Source: Verrucomicrobiota bacterium
GTDB taxonomy: Bacteria; Verrucomicrobiota; Verrucomicrobiia; Limisphaerales; JADLHS01
NCBI GenBank assembly: GCA_039806955.1
Contig: JBDHQI010000005.1
Span: 39,118 to 103,117, forward strand
DNA: 64,000 nt
Reading direction: 5' to 3'
Part shown: positions 2,181 to 45,160 of the stretch, one piece after another
How positions within the stretch are numbered: the stretch's first letter is position 1
How the letters are laid out: each line of letters starts with the position of its first letter
Program-made: the position numbers and the translations under genes
The notes under the pieces: generated by a model
What the model saw: the letters and a program-made list of their open reading frames with translations, nothing else
What the model was told of the DNA's origin: nothing
The model's database searches: none

Positions 2181-5644
<3,464 letters not shown>

Positions 5645-6602: not shown

Positions 6603-9046
6603 TGCCGGGAAGCGCGCGCGTCGGCGGCGCGTAGCAGGGTTTCCAGATAGGCAAGGCGGAATGGGCCAAGCCGGTCGCGCAGAGCAATGGCGCGGGCCAG
6701 CCATGATGGGCCGTGTTTGCCTTCGCCCATTTGCATGAAGCTGAGGTCGAGAGCGATTTCCGGGGTGGTCAACTCGGGCAGCGAAACCGGTTTCAAAATT
6801 TCACCATCCCAAATGCCGCGCGCAAAAAGTCTGGCTGGATTCTTCTCATCGCCTTTCTCATCCGGCAACGAGCGAATCGAGAGCCGGACTTTGCCGTGAT
6901 GCGCGGCGATGAGATAAGCGACAAGGTCGCGCTCCGGCGCATCAAGTGGGGCAGCCAGCAGCCACGCGAGCGCGGAGGCGAGTTCGTGGCGAATGCTTCG
7001 ATAAGGTTTATCGGCACTGTATCGTTTGGGTGGGTTTTCCGACTTCGCATAAAGACCCTTGGCGTCAGGGGGCTGATGCTGCCCATCGCGCAAAGCTTTT
7101 TGAAATTCCTCATGCGCTTTGCCGATGTCGTGCCACAACGCGGCGGTGCGGAGTGCGTCAACAAATTCGGCTTCACTCGCGAGCATTGCCAGTGCGGTCG
7201 TCTGTTCGACGACATATTTGGTATGCTCGGCGATGGTTTGCCATGAGCGACAAAATGTGTCTGGCTCATCGTCGTAGGCTTCGGGTGTGCCAGTTTCGGG
7301 AGGGTGCGGCTTGGGCTTGTCCTTCGGATCACCAGTCCAGCCGAGGTCATCGCAATAGCCGCCGCTGGATGTTGCCAAAAGATAAACTCCGCCGGGGCGG
7401 GGTGCTTTGGCGGCTTCCCACTCTTTGCCGAGCGGATTCCAGCGCCACGCGCGCGTAGTCTTTTTATCGAAGAACTTCATGGCATCGCCGATGGAAACGC
7501 GGCAAAGTTCGATGCGTTGCGGAGGCTTGTCGTTGCGAGTTGGCGCAGCATCGCCAGCGATGTCGCGCCAGAAGAATTGCACATCGCTATCGTCGCCATC
7601 GCGGATGTAACGGGAGATGTCGAGGTCTTGACCGCAGATGTCCGGCGTGGTGTCGAACAAATCCACGAGGTCGCGGCGGCGGATGACGGGACGGATAACC
7701 GGTGTTTCCTGAACGGTCACGTTCTTCAACGAGCGCGGGCTGACATCCGTAAGTTTCAACAGTTCCGCGCGGGCCTTGTCGAATTCATCCTTCGCGTAAG
7801 GCCGCGACAGTTCGTCTTTCTCGTCCTTGGGCTGGAGGTCCACCCACAACACCTCGGCATCAGGAATGTCCGCGCGGCGATTGCAACGCCCCATGCGTTG
7901 GACGAGCGATGACCACGGCGCGAGTTCGGTGATGAGCAACCGCGCGGAAACATCCACGCCCGCTTCGACGGCTTGCGTGGCGATGACAATGCGGTCGCCT
8001 GTGCCGAAAAGCAGCTTCGTATGCCGTTCGCGATCCACGGGCCGGAAGCGCGAATGAATGAGGGCGACTTTTCCCGGCGGGCAGAGCGGGTTTTTCCCCT
8101 TTGTCAGAGCTTCAAAGATTTCTCGCGCCCGTTTGACGCGATTCACGATGACGAGTGTCAGTGTGTCGGTCTTGTGGTGGTCCCTGACAAGTTTGGCAAG
8201 TTGCCCCGCGTAGTCTTTTGTTCCCGAACCAAGCGTGAGTGGGGTAGGCGAAAGCTTCTTGGATGCGGTGATAAGGTCATGCGGCCTGCCACTGGATTGC
8301 TCGGCCTCGCTCAACTTTTCAGTATGCGCCGGCTTTTGATGATCCACCGTTTCCAGACGCTTTTCTTCAAGCGTTGCGCTCATCCACCACGTCGGGCACG
8401 CGCCGAAAGTCGGCATTTTTCCATTGTGTCGGAAACCGTCCAGTTGCGCGCTGGTTTCGACGCCCACGCCCATCAACTGCGTTTCGTCCATCACCCACAA
8501 ACAATCATTATTAAGCAGACCAAAGTGCATCGGCCAGCGGTAGCGACTCATGCCGTAGCCGCGATTGAGAGCGCGACTGAGAAGCATGTCTTGCGTGCCG
8601 ATGAGGATGGCGTTTTCCTCGGGATAGATGTCCCATTCGCCTGGACCTTCGCCGCCCATGAGAATATGAACGCCAACTTTCCCTCTGCGTGTTTCAGGCT
8701 TTTCGTCCCAGAGCAGACCATGAGCATCGAGCCATCTGCGAACTTCCTTTTCCGTCTGTTCCACCAGCGTCCGCATTGGTAAACAGTACACGAGCCGGCG
8801 CGGCCACGTCTCCGATTGCAGGTGGATGCGATTCCATAACCACGCCAGCACCACGGCAGCGGTTTTACCGAGGCCGGTCGGGATGTTGATGAGCTGTGAT
8901 TGGCAGGCCGCGCCAGCTTGCAGAGTATCCGGCCGGGCCGGGTCTGTCTGCGGGCCACAGGCCAAGCGGTATTGGTAACCGTAGGGCCGATGCTCGGTCC
9001 CCAGGCATTGCCGGAAAAATTGTTCGTACGTCATTTGGTTCTCCAC
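6599..9046 (-). CDS. cas3: Cas3 helicase with C-terminal HD nuclease (subtype I-G architecture)
   Basis: 815 aa. SF2 helicase motifs are present: PTGLGKTAA, VMDETQL and QRMGRCNRR. They are followed by C-terminal HD motifs WHDIGKAHEEF and LIAAHHGKV. Confidence 0.9.
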   Translation of the reverse strand: MENQMTYEQFFRQCLGTEHRPYGYQYRLACGPQTDPARPDTLQAGAACQSQLINIPTGLGKTAAVVLAWLWNRIHLQSETWPRRLVYCLPMRTLVEQTEKEVRRWLDAHGLLWDEKPETRRGKVGVHILMGGEGPGEWDIYPEENAILIGTQDMLLSRALNRGYGMSRYRWPMHFGLLNNDCLWVMDETQLMGVGVETSAQLDGFRHNGKMPTFGACPTWWMSATLEEKRLETVDHQKPAHTEKLSEAEQSSGRPHDLITASKKLSPTPLTLGSGTKDYAGQLAKLVRDHHKTDTLTLVIVNRVKRAREIFEALTKGKNPLCPPGKVALIHSRFRPVDRERHTKLLFGTGDRIVIATQAVEAGVDVSARLLITELAPWSSLVQRMGRCNRRADIPDAEVLWVDLQPKDEKDELSRPYAKDEFDKARAELLKLTDVSPRSLKNVTVQETPVIRPVIRRRDLVDLFDTTPDICGQDLDISRYIRDGDDSDVQFFWRDIAGDAAPTRNDKPPQRIELCRVSIGDAMKFFDKKTTRAWRWNPLGKEWEAAKAPRPGGVYLLATSSGGYCDDLGWTGDPKDKPKPHPPETGTPEAYDDEPDTFCRSWQTIAEHTKYVVEQTTALAMLASEAEFVDALRTAALWHDIGKAHEEFQKALRDGQHQPPDAKGLYAKSENPPKRYSADKPYRSIRHELASALAWLLAAPLDAPERDLVAYLIAAHHGKVRLSIRSLPDEKGDEKNPARLFARGIWDGEILKPVSLPELTTPEIALDLSFMQMGEGKHGPSWLARAIALRDRLGPFRLAYLETLLRAADARASRQ

Positions 9047-9378
9047 CGGTCAAATGATTCCGGGTCGCCTACCGCCAGCACTCCTGATCCACCGCAAGTT
9101 TTACTGCGAAAGGCCCTCGAATGGGAGGAGCGATACCGCCAAGAATTTCGGGGAAACCTAAAGACTGCGACTTGGCGCAACAAGGTTAAAATTCGCCACC
9201 GTTTATCCGCACATTGTTACACCAGCACCCACAATTATGCCGAGCGCTCTGAGATAAGAGGCCAACAGCGTTGGATTGCAGCCGGGGAGTGGGGTTTCGG
9301 ATTTCATGTTTGTGTTTGCGTTACAGCCCCGTTGAAGTTGAACTCCTCATTGTGCAACTGACAACAACCGCCACTCCT

Positions 9379-9556
9379 GTGGGCGAAGACGACAGCCGGG
9401 CACGGGCCGGCCTACGCGGCCGAGAACTTGGCGACGTTGCGGCGGCTGGCCCTGTTGAAACGCGAGAAAACCAAGAAGCGCGGTATCAGAGGCAAACAAC
9501 TCAACGCCAGTTGGGATCGCGCCTATCTCTTGCGCCTCCTCGGCGTCCCGATTTAG
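9379..9556 (+). mobile_element. C-terminal remnant of an ISAs1-like (IS4-superfamily) transposase gene
   Basis: Translation gives ...EDDSRARAG, then a frame change, then HGPAYAAENLATLRRLALLKREKTKKRGIRGKQLNASWDRAYLLRLLGVPI-stop. This resembles the conserved ISAs1/H-repeat transposase C-terminus. No upstream DDE body is present. Confidence 0.5.
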
Positions 9557-37852: not shown

Positions 37853-38827
37853 ATGTCCGACGAGAATCAACAGCCGCAACCGAACCCCGAGCGCAAAACG
37901 CTCGACGACCGCGCAAAGATGACCGAGTTGGAACGCCTCCGCCACTCGTGCGCGCACGTCATGGCCACCGCCATCCTGCGCCTGTGGCCGGACGCGCAAT
38001 TCGCCTACGGCCCGCCCGTCGAGAACGGTTTTTACTACGACCTCGAATGTTCCCATCGCATCTCGCCCGAGGATTTTGAAAAAATCGAGGCCGAGATGAA
38101 AAAGGAGATCAAGTCCAACAACGTCTTCCAGAAGATCGAAGTGCCGCGCGAACAAGCTATCAAGGACGCGCAAAGCGGTCGGCTCGGCGGTCTGACGGAA
38201 CGCCCCGGCCATGCGAGCAAATTCAAGCTCGACCTCATCGCGCAGATTCCCGAAGGCGAACCGATTTCATATTTCAAGAACGGCGATTTCATTGACCTCT
38301 GCGCCGGGCCGCACGTGATGCGCACGGGCAACATCGGCGCGTTCAAGCTCACGAGCGTCGCCAGCGCGTATTACAAGGGCGACGAAAAAAATCCGCAGTT
38401 GCAACGCATTTACGGCACGGCGTTCAAGAACAAGACGGCGATGGACGAGTATTTCAAAATGCTCGAGGAAGCGAAGCGCCGCGACCATCGCAAGATCGGC
38501 GCGGAGATGGGGCTGTTCGCGATTGATACCGAATACGTCGGGCCGGGCATGCCGCTGTGGCTGCCCAAGGGCACGGTGCTGGTGGAGGAACTGGAAAAGC
38601 TGGCCAAGGAAACGGAATTCGCCGCCGGCTACGTCCGCGTCCGCACGCCGCATCTGGCCAAGGAGAAGATGTATAAAACCTCCGGCCATCTGCCGTATTA
38701 CGCCGAGAGCATGTTTCCGAAAATGGAAATGGACGAACACCGCGAAGCTCGCGCGAAACTCCAGTCCCGCATCGCCGAACTGGAAAAACAACTGGCCGAT
38801 TACGCGAAGAAAAAATCCGGTGGATGA
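37853..38827 (+). CDS. thrS: Threonyl-tRNA synthetase N-terminal fragment (editing-domain part, motif 1) with a 31-aa cassette-encoded tail
   Basis: RHSCAHVMATAILRLWP, RDHRKIG, VRVRTPHL (motif 1 Pro) and TSGHLPYYAESMFP are colinear with bacterial ThrRS up to the loop before the zinc-site Cys. After M293 (ATG 38729) the ORF reads DEHREARAKLQSRIAELEKQLADYAKKKSGG and then stops. There is no TGS domain: the HSCAH motif starts at residue 31. Confidence 0.9.
   Translation: MSDENQQPQPNPERKTLDDRAKMTELERLRHSCAHVMATAILRLWPDAQFAYGPPVENGFYYDLECSHRISPEDFEKIEAEMKKEIKSNNVFQKIEVPREQAIKDAQSGRLGGLTERPGHASKFKLDLIAQIPEGEPISYFKNGDFIDLCAGPHVMRTGNIGAFKLTSVASAYYKGDEKNPQLQRIYGTAFKNKTAMDEYFKMLEEAKRRDHRKIGAEMGLFAIDTEYVGPGMPLWLPKGTVLVEELEKLAKETEFAAGYVRVRTPHLAKEKMYKTSGHLPYYAESMFPKMEMDEHREARAKLQSRIAELEKQLADYAKKKSGG
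38724..38821 (+). repeat. Core TGGAAATG plus R module, copy 1 (in frame with thrS)
   Basis: This is the 8-bp core followed by a 90-nt segment. The segment recurs at 39417 (6 mismatches in 90 nt by hand alignment) and at 40646 (5 mismatches in about 80 nt). Confidence 0.9.
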
Positions 38828-38900
38828 GGTTTAACCGCGAAACACACCGCAGAAATGCCCTTTGCACGACTGCATTCGCCAAGTTATACTTTGCAGCAAG

Positions 38901-39564: not shown

Positions 39565-40638
39565 ATGCCCAAACCGAAAATCACCCCGCCGCCACCCGTT
39601 GCGCCTGAAACCTGGCAGGCATTGCTCGCCGCCACTGCCGAGTTCGCCGCGCTCCAACCGTGGGAATTCGCCTACGACAGCGATCCCGTTGGCTTGGTTG
39701 ATCCCGTCACTGGCGAGACGCGCATCGGCCATGTTCTCGGCAACGCGGGCGAGGTGTTCGCCGCCGTGTTTTACCGGCGCGCAGGACTGCGCTGGATTCT
39801 CGCCATGCTCGGCGATTCGCCCGATCCCGAGGATTTGAATAACGCCGATGGCATGGACTGCCTCAAAGTCGAACTCGTTCCCAAGCGCGAACTGTGGAAG
39901 GAAGACCTTGCCCTACTCAAGGCCGCCGCGTTCAAGCCCGCTGGAAAGGGACTCGTCTGGCCGCAATTCCGTTCCTCCGCTCCCGGTTGGCATCCGTGGC
40001 ATATCAATCAGGCCGAGGCAGATCAACTGCTCGCCGATCTGCCGCGTCTCACGGCGTTCTACCGGTTGTTCAAGCAACACCCCGACCTCTACGACGACCG
40101 CGACGCGACAGAGATTCCGTTTCTGCCCGTGCCGCTGGCCGCCCGCCCGCTCACGATTGCCGACCTCGACTGGCATCCGCTCCTGTTGCCGCCGCTCACC
40201 GGCTTCGAGCCGTTTCAAGTTCCCGGTGCTGATCTCGAAAAACTCCGCGCGCTCAAGCGCGATCCCGGCCTCGAATGTGAGTTCGACTGCACGATGATGC
40301 CCGGCGGTTCGTTTTACGAGAATGGACGCCCTTGCTTTGGCCGGTTCAGCCTGCTGGTGGAAAAACAACGTGGTCTCGTCATCGGCATGGACGTGGCCAG
40401 TGGCGCGCTCACGCCCGGCGAAGCCGCCGGACGCACTCTGGTCAAGGCGCTCCTCATGGGCAAAACCCTGCCGGAAAAAATCTTCATCGGCGGGTTGCGC
40501 CTGCAACCCGTCCTACAACCGCTGTGCGACGAATTGCAAATCCAGCTTCGGCCCGCGTCCTCGCTGCCTGCCTTGGAAGGAGCCATTGAATCGTTGAGCC
40601 AACAGTTGATGACAACAGGTGGGCCGGGACGACTCTGA
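39565..40638 (+). CDS. Cassette B hypothetical protein (357 aa)
   Basis: This is a long ORF co-oriented with thrS, at genome-typical GC. I recognise no catalytic or family motif with confidence. Confidence 0.55.
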   Translation: MPKPKITPPPPVAPETWQALLAATAEFAALQPWEFAYDSDPVGLVDPVTGETRIGHVLGNAGEVFAAVFYRRAGLRWILAMLGDSPDPEDLNNADGMDCLKVELVPKRELWKEDLALLKAAAFKPAGKGLVWPQFRSSAPGWHPWHINQAEADQLLADLPRLTAFYRLFKQHPDLYDDRDATEIPFLPVPLAARPLTIADLDWHPLLLPPLTGFEPFQVPGADLEKLRALKRDPGLECEFDCTMMPGGSFYENGRPCFGRFSLLVEKQRGLVIGMDVASGALTPGEAAGRTLVKALLMGKTLPEKIFIGGLRLQPVLQPLCDELQIQLRPASSLPALEGAIESLSQQLMTTGGPGRL

Positions 40639-40736: not shown

Positions 40737-40900
40737 AAAGTAGGACAGCGCGTCCCGCCTGTCTGGATGAAGGGGAAATGGCCGCAACAGAACGCAAGGC
40801 GCGCAAAGAATTTAACCGCGAAAGACGCGGAGACGCAGAGTGAAAACTGCCATTTATCTCTGTCTTTGCTTCACGACCTGAAAAAGCTTAGACTTCCGGC

Positions 40901-41428: not shown

Positions 41429-41436
41429 TTGAAATG
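41429..41436 (+). repeat. Fourth copy of the 8-bp core (TTGAAATG); its ATG is the ThrRS C-fragment start codon
   Basis: TNGAAATG occurs at 38724, 39417, 40646 and 41429, at exactly the four junctions of the cassette array. Confidence 0.85.
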
Positions 41437-42522
41437 AACCCTGAAGAATTTGTTGCCATTGAACAGGCCGTCAAGGCCAGCGCCGCGCCGACGGAGATTG
41501 TCGCCGCATTCAACGAGTTGGCCGCGTTGCGCGCGCAGTTGAACAAGCTCGGCGAGGCGGAGAGTTATTACCTCAAAGCGATGAACTGCCCGCATCATCA
41601 CCGCATTTTTGCGGCCGAGCCGCGCAGTTATCGCGACCTGCCGTTGCGCCTCGCGGAATACGGCTGCTGCTATCGCTACGAGCAGTCGGGCGAGTTGTTC
41701 GGCCTCATGCGCGTGCGTTCGCTCAACATGAACGACGCCCACATCTATTGCACCGAGGACCAGTTCGCGTCCGAGTTCAAGGCCGTGAACGACATGTATC
41801 TGAAATATTTCAAGACGTTCGGCCTCGAAAAATATCAGATGCGCTTCAGCACGTCGTCGCCGGAGGGCCTGGGCAAAAAATACGTCAACGAGCCCGGGCT
41901 GTGGAAGAAAACCGAGGACATGGTGCGTCGCGTGTTGCAGGAAAGCGGCATCAATTACATCGAGGTCGCGAACGAGGCGGCGTTCTACGGCCCGAAGATT
42001 GACGTGCAGGTGTGGAGCGCCATCGGCCGCGAATTCACCATCGCCACGAACCAGGTGGACTTCGCCGTGCCGTCGCGCTTCGGCCTGACCTATCGCGACA
42101 AGGACAATTCCAACAAGACGCCGTTGTGCATCCATCGCGCGCCGCTCGGCACGCACGAGCGGTTCATCGGCTTCCTCATCGAGCATTATGCCGGCAACTT
42201 CCCGCTCTGGCTCGCGCCCGACCAGGTGCGCGCCATCACGCTCAACGACGACGCGGCGCTGATTGCTTACGCCCAGCCCATCGTGAACGAACTACGCGCG
42301 AACATGGTGCGCGTGGACACGGATTTCAGCGCCACGCCGTTCAAGGCGAAGATCGCCGACGCGGAAAAGCTCCGCGTCCACACCATGCTCATCATCGGCG
42401 GCAAGGACATGGAAGCAGGCAAAGTTTCCGTGCGCCTCCACCACGGCGGCCCGCAAGGCGCAAAGCCGAAGGCGGAAGTTCTTGCGAAGATTCTGGCGGA
42501 CATCAAAGAGCGGAAGGCGTGA
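41434..42522 (+). CDS. thrS: Threonyl-tRNA synthetase C-terminal fragment (zinc site, motifs 2 and 3, anticodon-binding domain)
   Basis: 362 aa. A 47-aa helical-looking extension (NPEEFVAIEQAVKASAAPTEIVAAFNELAALRAQLNKLGEAES) comes first. It is followed by YYLKAMNCPHHH, motif 2 (RLAEYGCCYRYEQSGELFGLMRVRSLNMNDAH), motif 3 (GTHERFIGFLIEHYAG) and the anticodon-binding domain. Confidence 0.9.
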   Translation: MNPEEFVAIEQAVKASAAPTEIVAAFNELAALRAQLNKLGEAESYYLKAMNCPHHHRIFAAEPRSYRDLPLRLAEYGCCYRYEQSGELFGLMRVRSLNMNDAHIYCTEDQFASEFKAVNDMYLKYFKTFGLEKYQMRFSTSSPEGLGKKYVNEPGLWKKTEDMVRRVLQESGINYIEVANEAAFYGPKIDVQVWSAIGREFTIATNQVDFAVPSRFGLTYRDKDNSNKTPLCIHRAPLGTHERFIGFLIEHYAGNFPLWLAPDQVRAITLNDDAALIAYAQPIVNELRANMVRVDTDFSATPFKAKIADAEKLRVHTMLIIGGKDMEAGKVSVRLHHGGPQGAKPKAEVLAKILADIKERKA

Positions 42523-44438
42523 ACTCGAATAGCATCGTGCAGCAGCCGTCATCAAATGATTCCCGAAAAGACCGGAGCGAACCGACAACTTCCAGAACTT
42601 TGCTCAAAGGATTTCGCGCAGACCGCAAGCACCACGGAAAGCTTTTGTTCGTTGATGAAAAGTTGAAGGTGTTTCCGACCGGCAAATGGTCTGAACTCTA
42701 CGCAAGCCCGCGCCGAGGTTTCCTCGTCGAAGTTGACCAGAAGGGTCAGTTCAAGCCCCTCAACATTTACAAAGACCCGCGCAGTCAAATCTTGCCGAGA
42801 ACGCTCTCCCGTTGGCTCAAAGAAGATTGGGAGATTCAAAAGGAGATAAAGAAGCGACGCAGAGAAGACAAAAATGTTCGGGCGATTCAACCGAACTCGA
42901 TTGTCGCGACCAGCACGGCGGCCCTTCCGAAAAGGGTTCTAGTCTTGGACATTGAAACGTCCGGCAAGCTGGACGAGCCGCCCAATACAGGAAGAATACT
43001 GCTCGTGGGAATCAAGGAGTTCAATCTGGTCAGTGGCGGTTATCACCCGTCGCCATACGAGCCGTTTGAGGGCAAACCTGATTGGGTAGCACTTCAGCAA
43101 CGCTTGAGCCAGCCGACGGATTTGATTTTGGGACACAACATATTCGGGTTCGATTACTATTTTCTCGAAACAATCATTCAGATTGAGCTGATCGCCGCAA
43201 AGACGGTTGATTTGTTCCTTTGGTTGTGCGCGTGCGTTGGATTTCACCGCGGCCTTGGGCTAAACGATCTTTGCCGACTCAACATCGGGGTGTGGAAGGC
43301 TCGATTTGGAAAGTCGCTGAAAGAGCTTTCCGCGCTACCCGACAGAACACATCTTCACCGTTACAACGAGCGCGACTTGGATTTGACTTTTCGGCTCTGG
43401 CTGCACGCTGTCGCTCAAAAAACAATCCAGACTCATGGCGCTGGAAATTTGAAGGCTACCAGCAGCGACCTCGACTATCTTTTTGGCCGCAAGCCAATTG
43501 TCGGACATCAGGCTTGGATGGAAAAGCGGCGGGCTTGGAACTCAAAGCTGCCTTCACCTCTACATCGTGAAGCTGTAATTCAGAGACTTGGCGACCACGA
43601 CGCAGAGAAAGTGGTGTGGCCGAGCTACAGCGTAATCGTCTGCTCGTGTTGCCGCCATGCGACGGTGTTCCAAGTTTTCGAATTATTTCAGCGAGACGTC
43701 GAGGATGGTGCGGACTTCCCTGGGCACGCTTTGATTAAACGGGAACTCAAGACCTACAGGCTTCGATGTGCGTGCGGCGAAAGCATCAAAGCCCGGAGTT
43801 CCACTCCTCCAATCTTGATTGGCAATTTCGCGATCAAATCTCCCCGGAAGCGAACCGATGGCTATTGGTCACCAATGCTGCACACTGGAGGACAGTATCT
43901 TCTCTCGCCATTTGAAAAGACATGGGAGCAGTTATTCCGAGAATTCAAACTCGGACGGAGGAGTTCGTCATCAACGTCATTCAAACGGAAGCCCACACCA
44001 GAGGAGGCTGCACTGTTGAGTGCGGCAGTCGGCGAAGAATTCAAACGCAGCATCACTTTCAACGAAAAGGGCACGGCCTATCTTTTGCTCGACGGCGGTG
44101 AGCCTTCAGACTGCTACATGAAGGAATACATGGCGGCTGGATTGGACGACGTTCTGGAAGAACACTGGAAAGGCAACGCTTCGTGGATTAGCCGCACGGC
44201 CCTCGACAGCGATGCTCACTGCCGGACATGCGGGGCTCGGTTGACCATTCACGACATCCCGCTTGTTCACCCGATTTTCCAAACTCCAATTTGCCAGCCA
44301 TGTATTCGCCTCGGACGGCATCGCTACTTTCATTGCGGCGAGTGGCAACCGAAGTTGAAGCGACGACGCGCAAAGTTTCTCGATGAATTAGAACCAACAA
44401 CCTCATCGCGGAATTTAACCGCGTTTTACATGCGTTGA
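42519..44438 (+). CDS. YprB-like DEDD 3'-5' exonuclease domain protein with C-terminal Cys-rich (zinc-ribbon-like) region
   Basis: Exo motifs are VLVLDIETSG, LILGHNIFGFDYYFL and HRYNERDLDLTFRLW. C-terminal Cys clusters are CSCCRH...CACG and HCRTCG...CQPCIRLGRHRYFHCG. The ORF-track start at 42012 overlaps thrS out of frame. The first plausible start is the GTG at 42519 (GTGA overlap with the thrS stop), and TTG/GTG starts up to about 42670 are also possible. GC is clearly lower than the surroundings. Confidence 0.6.
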   Translation: MNSNSIVQQPSSNDSRKDRSEPTTSRTLLKGFRADRKHHGKLLFVDEKLKVFPTGKWSELYASPRRGFLVEVDQKGQFKPLNIYKDPRSQILPRTLSRWLKEDWEIQKEIKKRRREDKNVRAIQPNSIVATSTAALPKRVLVLDIETSGKLDEPPNTGRILLVGIKEFNLVSGGYHPSPYEPFEGKPDWVALQQRLSQPTDLILGHNIFGFDYYFLETIIQIELIAAKTVDLFLWLCACVGFHRGLGLNDLCRLNIGVWKARFGKSLKELSALPDRTHLHRYNERDLDLTFRLWLHAVAQKTIQTHGAGNLKATSSDLDYLFGRKPIVGHQAWMEKRRAWNSKLPSPLHREAVIQRLGDHDAEKVVWPSYSVIVCSCCRHATVFQVFELFQRDVEDGADFPGHALIKRELKTYRLRCACGESIKARSSTPPILIGNFAIKSPRKRTDGYWSPMLHTGGQYLLSPFEKTWEQLFREFKLGRRSSSSTSFKRKPTPEEAALLSAAVGEEFKRSITFNEKGTAYLLLDGGEPSDCYMKEYMAAGLDDVLEEHWKGNASWISRTALDSDAHCRTCGARLTIHDIPLVHPIFQTPICQPCIRLGRHRYFHCGEWQPKLKRRRAKFLDELEPTTSSRNLTAFYMR

Positions 44439-44477
44439 ATTTGAAAAGTTTTACCCAAGTTGAACCAAGTTGCCATC

Positions 44478-44836
44478 GGAAGACCGAGGACATGGTGCGC
44501 CGCGTGTTGCAGGAGAGCGGCATCAATTACGTCGAGGTCGCGAAGTGTTAGCACACGGCCACCAGGCGGCGTCCTACGGGCCGAAGATTGACGTGCAGGT
44601 GTGGAGCGCCATCGGCCGCGAATTCACCATCGCCACGAACCAGGTGGACTTCGCCGTGCTGTCGCGCTTCGGCCTGACCTACCGCGACAAGGACAACTCC
44701 AACAAGACGCCGTTGTGCATCCATCGCGCGCCGCTCGGCACTCACGAGCGGTTCATTGGCGGCAATCAGTTACATTACGCGGGCAACTTCCCGCTCTGGC
44801 TCGCGCCGGATCAGGTGCGCGTCATCACGCTCAGCG
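44478..44836 (+). pseudogene. Decayed duplicate of an internal thrS segment (equivalent to 41903..42250)
   Basis: It aligns by hand to the functional copy: ...ACCGAGGACATGGTGCG...GGCCCGAAGATTGACGTGCAGGTGTGGAGCGCCATCGGCCGCGAATTCACC.... It carries an insertion of about 17 nt that creates a stop and a frameshift after ...INYVEVA, substitutions (AVPSRF to AVLSRF, FIGFLIEHY to FIGGNQLHY), and truncation at both ends. Confidence 0.8.
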
Positions 44837-44898: not shown

Positions 44899-44968
44899 TA
44901 GCAGCCGACGTGAGTCGGCTCTGACTTTTCGGTGGATTTAGATGGAGCGGACTCACGTCCGCTGCTAC
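44899..44968. repeat. Inverted repeat (REP-like hairpin)
   Basis: GTAGCAGCCGACGTGAGTC (44899-44917) and GACTCACGTCCGCTGCTAC (44950-44968) are reverse complements with 1 mismatch. The loop is 32 nt. Confidence 0.5.
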
Positions 44969-44980
44969 TGGGTTTTCAAT

Positions 44981-45160
44981 GATGTAGCCGTATTGTTTGC
45001 CGGGCGCTTTGCGCATGACGCGCCCGACGGATTGCACTACGTCCACGACGGAATTGCGCGGATTGAGGAACATGACGGCGTCGAGCGCGGGCACGTCCAC
45101 GCCTTCGGAGAGGCAGCGGGCATTGCTCAGGATGCGGCAGATGCGCCAGCCTTGACGCCT
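44981..45160 (-). pseudogene. Fragment of an SF2 helicase C-terminal domain (restriction-enzyme-type helicase)
   Basis: RILSNARCLSEGVDVPALDAVMFLNPRNSVVDVVQSVGRVMRKAPGKQYGYII contains helicase motifs V-VI (QSVGRVMR). There is no N-terminal helicase domain or upstream body. Confidence 0.5.

Follow-up and report, generated by a model that had tools for sequence, protein, structure and literature searches.

Why should a gene for a large exonuclease begin on the very stop codon of thrS, the gene for threonyl-tRNA synthetase (ThrRS), and be followed by a second, broken copy of the thrS end? The question is raised by a 64,000-nucleotide (nt) stretch of a Verrucomicrobiota bacterium (GTDB order Limisphaerales, JADLHS01; assembly GCA_039806955.1, contig JBDHQI010000005.1, positions 39,118 to 103,117), hereafter the window, in which an open reading frame (ORF) of 639 amino acids (aa), the target, occupies this position. 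The best explanation, to which about an even chance is given, is that the target arrived by horizontal transfer as a cassette of one gene, fills the first slot of an array of thrS ends, and encodes a possible conflict nuclease. In narrower terms, the evidence points to a horizontally acquired, probably active, stand-alone exonuclease cassette. Three features define the locus:

41434–42522, forward strand: C-terminal half of thrS, with the ThrRS core motifs and the anticodon-binding domain (PF00587, PF03129; TIGR00418 positions 254–562).
42519–44438, forward strand: the target ORF, 639 aa, with a GTG start and its stop at 44436–44438; intact.
44479–44836, forward strand: displaced, decayed thrS copy matching 41907–42247, the right boundary of the cassette.

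The thrS stop codon forms the left boundary of the cassette, the target starts there, and a 5′-truncated thrS copy begins 40 nt past the end of the target. This copy is 88% identical to 41907–42247 when gaps are counted and 91–96% identical in ungapped blocks, confirming the displaced thrS fragment that an initial annotation, made from the sequence alone, had placed behind the gene. The locus thus has the thrS stop on its left, the truncated copy on its right, and a recurrence of the same arrangement with other cargo elsewhere, as expected of a displaced gene-end array. In nine of the ten thrS loci examined in relatives, an intact thrS is followed by one to five 5′-truncated fragments of its end, 0.5–5.5 kb apart. 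Five fragments are present in one of these loci (L024; G001:C182:27000-42000), further arrays occur in L025–L032, and the homology ends exactly at the stop codon in most fragments that reach it. The cargo between the fragments is diverse, comprising a Dam-type methylase, a Fic protein, the catalase-peroxidase KatG, a GH53 hydrolase, a GNAT acetyltransferase, an esterase, an ECF sigma fusion, a Rieske/FMN reductase protein, a TOTE primase-helicase, and an HxlR regulator. Throughout this lineage and genus, cassettes gather at the 3′ end of thrS, a hot spot newly recognised here, and the target fills the first slot of the array in this genome. No recombinase gene lies between thrS and nrdR. Neither a promoter-like nor a terminator-like site was found between thrS and the target, which makes expression of the latter by read-through plausible.

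The target is a real, intact, and very rare gene. Its GTG at 42519 overlaps the TGA of thrS (42520–42522) as GTGA, and an alternative in-frame GTG exists at 42537; translation is assigned to one or the other since homologs are conserved from about residue 22, in agreement with the initial proposal of a start in the overlap or slightly later. An 808-aa ORF listed from 42012 is an artefact of the open frame upstream, which runs over thrS. Integrity of the reading frame was checked against Logan contigs from wastewater and activated-sludge runs. A single 2408-bp unitig spans 42203–44610 with zero differences in two studies, both of which may be the source of this assembly, and a third, independent study is identical over 42522–43763 at low depth. 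The unitigs of all three studies are free of insertions and deletions within the gene, which speaks against a fusion of pseudogene pieces. The contigs that encode the homologs P0004 and P0005 (2.4–3.1 kb) are similar to the 2408-bp unitig, which is bounded by thrS repeats. To the left and right of the target the assembly graph is interrupted at the thrS repeats, as expected, so the order of the repeats rests on the assembler. In one metatranscriptome run (X18), no contig fell on the target gene, a result uninformative on its expression; contigs of this run on thrS, at 90–95% likeness, belong to related organisms and carry other sequence after the stop codon.

In the catalytic part of the protein, the following forward-strand features were located:

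42909–43553, forward strand: DEDDy 3′–5′ exonuclease domain, residues ~131–345.
42948–42965, forward strand: Exo I, DIETSG (D144, E146), residues 144–149, invariant in 50 relatives.
43134–43166, forward strand: Exo II, HNIFGFDYYFL (N207, D212), residues 206–216, invariant and aligned to IIGWNVVQFD of Pol II.
43362–43385, forward strand: Exo III, YNERDLDL (Y282, D286), residues 282–289, aligned to YNLKDCEL of Pol II.

Across the 50 relatives, D144, E146, N207, D212, N283, and D286 are invariant, and Y282 is kept in at least 90%. The pattern is that of the DnaQ-like DEDD superfamily, with D-x-E in Exo I, N-x2-3-(F/Y)-D in Exo II, and Y-x3-D in Exo III, the last of which places the domain in the DEDDy class. 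A profile built from the relatives matches the exonuclease domain of Escherichia coli Pol II (E 1.1e-5) with Exo II and Exo III aligned, and the target itself matches phrog_17 (DNA polymerase, exonuclease part; E 2.2e-10) and phrog_403 (E 4.6e-5). The target also shows the RNase H-like exonuclease fold. An AlphaFold (AF2) model computed on a 118-sequence alignment reached a mean predicted local distance difference test (pLDDT) of 80.8 and a predicted template modelling score (pTM) of 0.77, and Foldseek comparison with the Protein Data Bank (PDB) and with viral models agrees with the assignment. The initial annotation had proposed a YprB-like DEDD exonuclease. This proposal stands, the domain being a DEDD-type exonuclease related to the group of family B polymerase (PolB) exonucleases and PF13482 (YprB-like); the target itself falls below every Pfam threshold. 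It has no Pfam match even at E up to 1 and misses the gathering cut-off of PF13482 RNase_H_2 (22 bits), and its relatives match PF13482, PF10108, and PF01612 weakly, with 23.4 bits for PF13482 in one relative (P0018) and the remainder below the cut-off. No DNA_pol_B match was found in the target, its PHROG and PDB matches being limited to the exonuclease part. From these motifs and models, the exonuclease assignment can be regarded as secure and the predicted active site as intact. The domain carries the two-metal DEDDy features of the PolB-proofreading or RNase D type, from which a 3′–5′ exonuclease activity is predicted, and in itself it is ordinary and of a known kind.

What sets the protein apart is the sequence around this domain, for which no known family was matched, consistent with the flanking regions of unknown function noted at the outset:

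42591–42878, forward strand: N-terminal alpha/beta domain and basic helix, residues ~25–120, AF2 pLDDT 60–91.
43608–43832, forward strand: all-beta zinc-ribbon domain, residues ~364–438, with C375, C378, C417, and C419.
43893–44183, forward strand: helical region, residues ~459–555, in the close family only.
44214–44336, forward strand: C-terminal CxxC...CxxC zinc module with C568, C571, C592, and C595 and an HD dipeptide at 578–579.

The N-terminal domain is conserved in P0004–P0008 and P0011, and residues 25–120 have no Pfam or PDB match. The zinc-ribbon region is modelled by AF2 as strands with block-mean pLDDT of 75–95, and C375 and C417 are nearly invariant across the 50 relatives; distant relatives show CxxC...CPxCG at this position, and relatives also give hints of generic zinc-ribbon Pfam families. 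The helical region has no match beyond close homologs. The C-terminal module appears in relatives of ~390 aa as CxxCG...PICxxC, and distant relatives keep its four Cys, without the His and Asp. The Cys clusters lie at CSCC 375–378, CAC 417–419, CRTC 568–571, CQPC 592–595, and HC 605–606, so that the exonuclease motifs and Cys clusters first reported are all present where they had been placed, and the Cys-rich, zinc-ribbon-like C-terminus resolves into two Cys4 zinc modules. The residue counts given for the flanks needed revision, as ~350 rather than ~430 residues follow the third motif and ~135 rather than ~120 precede the first. A search of the ESM Atlas with residues 345–639 gave no usable match, and CENP-N, the sole protein retrieved from the PDB by the A1 profile, was rejected as a chance match (E 0.13). 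Binding of the nucleic-acid substrate, or the sensing of a trigger, would be the most likely task of the N-terminal domain with its basic helix and of the two predicted Cys4 zinc modules.

The full architecture is very rare. No family of Pfam, NCBIfam, or PADLOC was matched by the target at E up to 1, and only seven full-length or near-full-length homologs besides its own protein were found among 5.8 billion protein clusters. These homologs are collinear from the N-terminal domain to the C-terminus, with identities of 47–78% by local BLASTP and 46–77% in the multiple alignment, and their clusters are annotated as 'hypothetical protein' only. An exhaustive HMMER search of 1.84 billion representatives returned 112 proteins, all of which, apart from the protein itself, P0010, and P0011, match residues ~130–385 only. 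Within the order, the full-length family is present in two of 401 sampled genomes (this one and G368) and in none of nine other genomes of the same genus. The metagenome scan gave distant short exonucleases only, among the matches listed. Shorter relatives that combine the exonuclease with a zinc ribbon occur sporadically in Rubrobacter, Saprospiraceae, Zixibacteria, Nitrospira, Planctomycetales, Myxococcales, and other groups. A survey of homolog neighbourhoods, one of the checks proposed at the outset, showed the relatives' neighbours to be mutually unrelated: no conserved neighbour or operon partner was found among distant or long-form relatives, some neighbours resemble an integrase, a transposase, or an AbiEi-like protein (by the appearance of their N-terminal sequence only), and the orthologs that a housekeeping gene would have at one conserved locus in most relatives were not found. 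Stand-alone PF13482 exonucleases of ~190 aa are common in the phylum (47 of 401 sampled phylum genomes, and nearly all members of some families); the genome of the window encodes a 182-aa paralog of this kind (L011:1492-2040; G000:C65), with a PF13482 match at E 2e-6. In the literature searched, neither a system of this kind nor cassette arrays at thrS are described. Nor do the searched libraries and papers contain the architecture or the family, and the initial judgement that the architecture fits no described system was borne out by the lack of any PADLOC, Pfam, or NCBIfam model and of any paper.

The composition of the target is atypical and not extreme. Its GC content is 0.522, compared with a mean of 0.579 (standard deviation, sd, 0.025) in windows of the same length across the 4.23-Mb genome, which puts it in the lowest 2.1% and agrees with the lower GC of the initial annotation. 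In dinucleotide signature distance, 5.7% of genome windows equal or surpass it, and its GC at third codon positions (0.587) lies about one sd below that of the ORFs of the window (0.657, sd 0.066). Three findings support the foreign origin suspected from the start: the composition, the presence of the family in two of the 401 genomes sampled from the order, and the duplication of thrS sequence beside the gene.

A second context comes from G368, whose homolog (48% identity) lies between arc/mpa, encoding the proteasomal ATPase, and a gene of the Pup ligase family (dop or pafA), with gaps of 7 and 25 bases and no duplication. The record of this homolog (L008; CALQJI020000007.1) is titled as a Klebsiella pneumoniae metagenome-assembled genome; it was placed in the order of the window genome, and the title looks wrong. 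Two outgroup genomes have arc and dop side by side, and in sister genomes of the G368 genus the gap between them measures 0.4 to >1.5 kb (L102–L108; ~25 nt to >1.5 kb among relatives). The cargo found there consists of ParD/ParE with a DMP19-like gene, a DUF5615/PIN-like gene, PemK/MazF with a HicB-like gene, and other ORFs. The arc–dop gap provides another slot for cassettes after a conserved gene, one without displaced gene-end copies. Both placed members of the family therefore immediately follow a conserved gene, at variable sites that relatives use for toxin-antitoxin modules.

Comparison with known systems places the protein among familiar enzymes by its catalytic domain only. With the proofreading domain of family B polymerases (E. 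coli Pol II and archaeal PolB; PDB 1q8i, 5mdn) it shares Exo I, II, and III and the Y-x3-D signature, whereas the palm, fingers, and thumb are absent, matches stop at about residue 345, and an N-terminal domain and two zinc modules are added. The stand-alone PF13482 and PF10108 exonucleases of phages and bacteria are the closest sequence families of the target's relatives; PF13482 is also the closest family of the genome's own 182-aa paralog and is represented in the nearest ESM Atlas clusters, the latter as a lead only. In contrast to the target, these proteins measure 180–280 aa and lack the zinc ribbons, the N-terminal domain, and the helical insert. RNase D, Nibbler, and the WRN exonuclease use the same catalytic tetrad with Tyr, but identity to them is 12–16%, and the target has neither HRDC nor their other accessory domains. 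A broader, uncharacterised exonuclease and zinc-ribbon family of ~390 aa (for example P0012, P0013, P0018) is 25–28% identical; in it the exonuclease domain is followed by a linker, a CxxC...CPxCG ribbon, and a terminal CxxC...PICxxC module, and whose members are solitary genes in varied contexts across many phyla. To this form the target family adds the N-terminal domain, a helical insert of ~100 residues, and the HD dipeptide in the last zinc module. In locus layout alone, the array recalls orphan cdiA-CT and rhs-CT modules, which likewise show the truncated end of a conserved gene beside cargo, tandem modules, and a sharp homology boundary. Unlike those systems, the repeated gene here is an essential synthetase rather than a toxin, and the cargo consists of separate genes of any function rather than alternative C-termini.

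How such a cassette might move can be proposed from the layout. Since thrS homology lies on both sides, two homologous crossovers could bring a copy of the segment into any thrS; this would be equivalent to the Campbell-type insertion of a circle and would reproduce the observed arrangement without a recombinase of its own. Expression would then occur by read-through or by translational coupling from thrS. The product may act as a stand-alone conflict nuclease, either in defence against phage or plasmid DNA or in an addiction-like function. Such a conflict role, defensive or addictive, is suggested tentatively; among the possible roles it is the most likely one because both placed homologs occupy toxin-antitoxin or defence slots and no conserved partner exists. 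In its fullest form, the proposal describes a hitherto undescribed single-gene conflict system, in which a PolB-type DEDDy exonuclease is joined to an N-terminal sensor and two zinc modules. Its cassette, promoterless and flanked by homology, would be parked directly after essential genes (thrS, arc) and ride on their transcription, and the protein would destroy invading DNA or enforce its own retention; this version is doubtful. Several observations weigh against the best explanation as a whole. No family of PADLOC-DB 2.0 was matched at E up to 1, the compositional deviation is only moderate, and tblastn gave no match in 50,697 phage records or in the plasmid collections, nor in IMG/VR with A5. 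In addition, the full-length family was examined in two contexts only, and the thrS arrays carry plainly metabolic cargo (KatG, GH53, GNAT, esterase), so the slot alone does not imply conflict.

Four other accounts of the gene can be weighed against the same evidence. That the protein is a phage exonuclease for replication or recombination, a remnant or a capture from a prophage that has decayed, with no conflict role, is improbable. It draws on the fact that the best sequence-family matches are exonuclease domains of phage DNA polymerases, on the viral structure matches, on the nearest ESM Atlas clusters being viral PF13482 proteins (scores 0.86–0.88, leads only), and on a helicase stump just downstream. 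The 2.6-kb cassette, however, holds no further phage gene, the tblastn searches of phage records and IMG/VR were empty, and the viral look-alikes have neither zinc modules nor the N-terminal domain. Since the two known contexts are both tight insertions right after the stop of a conserved gene and involve a single gene, the protein could also be imagined as a homing-type or mobility nuclease that drives its own insertion, with the C-terminal CxxC...HD...CxxC acting as an HNH-like endonuclease that cuts behind conserved genes; its CxxCG-x4-IHDIP...ICxxC does resemble zinc-bound HNH motifs. This is quite unlikely, given that genomes without the family have many unrelated cargo genes in these slots, from which it follows that the hot spot is independent of the target family. 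Moreover, no HNH Pfam family is matched at E 1, the distant relatives keep the four Cys without the His and Asp, no His or Asn follows the second CxxC (CQPC), and the G368 copy lacks a target duplication. An HNH nuclease as the C-terminal module is unsupported by profiles or by distant relatives and seems unlikely.

A slim chance is left to an ordinary housekeeping exonuclease of DNA repair or RNA processing. The related stand-alone exonuclease of ~190 aa in this genome and in many Verrucomicrobia would fit such a role, as would the housekeeping function of DEDDy enzymes such as RNase D, yet the long form is confined to two of 401 genomes of the order and to seven homologs among 5.8 billion clusters, its composition is atypical, and it lies between thrS duplicates. 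That the ORF is a pseudogene in decay, or a chimera made in assembly from unrelated pieces, is barely credible, even in a region rich in gene fragments (the thrS fragment, the helicase stump) and with an assembly graph that breaks at the thrS repeats on both sides: one unitig runs from thrS at 42203 through the gene to 44610 without differences, the homologs are collinear over their full length, the catalytic residues and zinc ligands are conserved, and the AF2 model is confident (pTM 0.77).

Further observations concern the surroundings of the cassette. The thrS gene of the window is itself split (37853–38827 and 41434–42522), and the gap between its halves holds three cassettes; the split point is a lineage-specific hypervariable helical insertion, which measures 12–110 aa in intact relatives, or 9–110 aa when counted directly. 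The cargo of the middle intragenic cassette (39565–40638, 357 aa) matches the Pfam families DUF7309 (E 8e-25) and DUF6930 (E 2e-18). On another contig of the same genome (L005; G000:C27:28346-31459), thrS fragments at 1498–1625 and 2424–2516 are 92% and 83% identical to 42129–42258 and 42435–42528. One relative (L031; G021:C208:1-12000) carries, 3 kb from an intact thrS at 7449–9500, a second C-terminal half at 3322–4296, which is 69% identical to the thrS half of the window, together with a small fragment. The TOTE protein mentioned above is cargo of the thrS array of G022 (L025:6121-8982) and comprises 953 aa with an AEP primase, an SF2 helicase, and a DUF559 endonuclease. The helicase stump lies just downstream of the target's cassette at ~44900–45140; it was compared with the thrS-array cargo of relatives, the TOTE helicase included, without a match.

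The 10-mer TTTAACCGCG occurs three times in the window (38830–38839, 40811–40820, and 44414), compared with 0.22 expected. Two of these belong to the coding part of the repeated thrS insertion, where they read FNR, and the copy at 44414 is read in another frame within the conserved last codons of the target (NLTA in SSRNLTAFY). The motif that the initial annotation had seen after the gene is therefore present, with its copy lying inside the last codons of the gene rather than behind it. The same copy is part of a hairpin:

44407–44423, forward strand: hairpin with a 5-bp stem, CGCGG-AATTTAA-CCGCG followed by TTTT, containing TTTAACCGCG and overlapping the last codons of the target.

Terminator-like hairpins are not more numerous at the gene end than expected by chance.

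If active, the target would be a compact exonuclease whose architecture lies outside every family library, and its occurrence in slots that elsewhere contain toxin-antitoxin and defence genes would make it a candidate for a new conflict nuclease. The locus also suggests how accessory genes may spread in these Verrucomicrobia without a recombinase of their own, with pieces of an essential gene providing the flanks and the essential gene itself providing expression, both points being drawn from sequence evidence.

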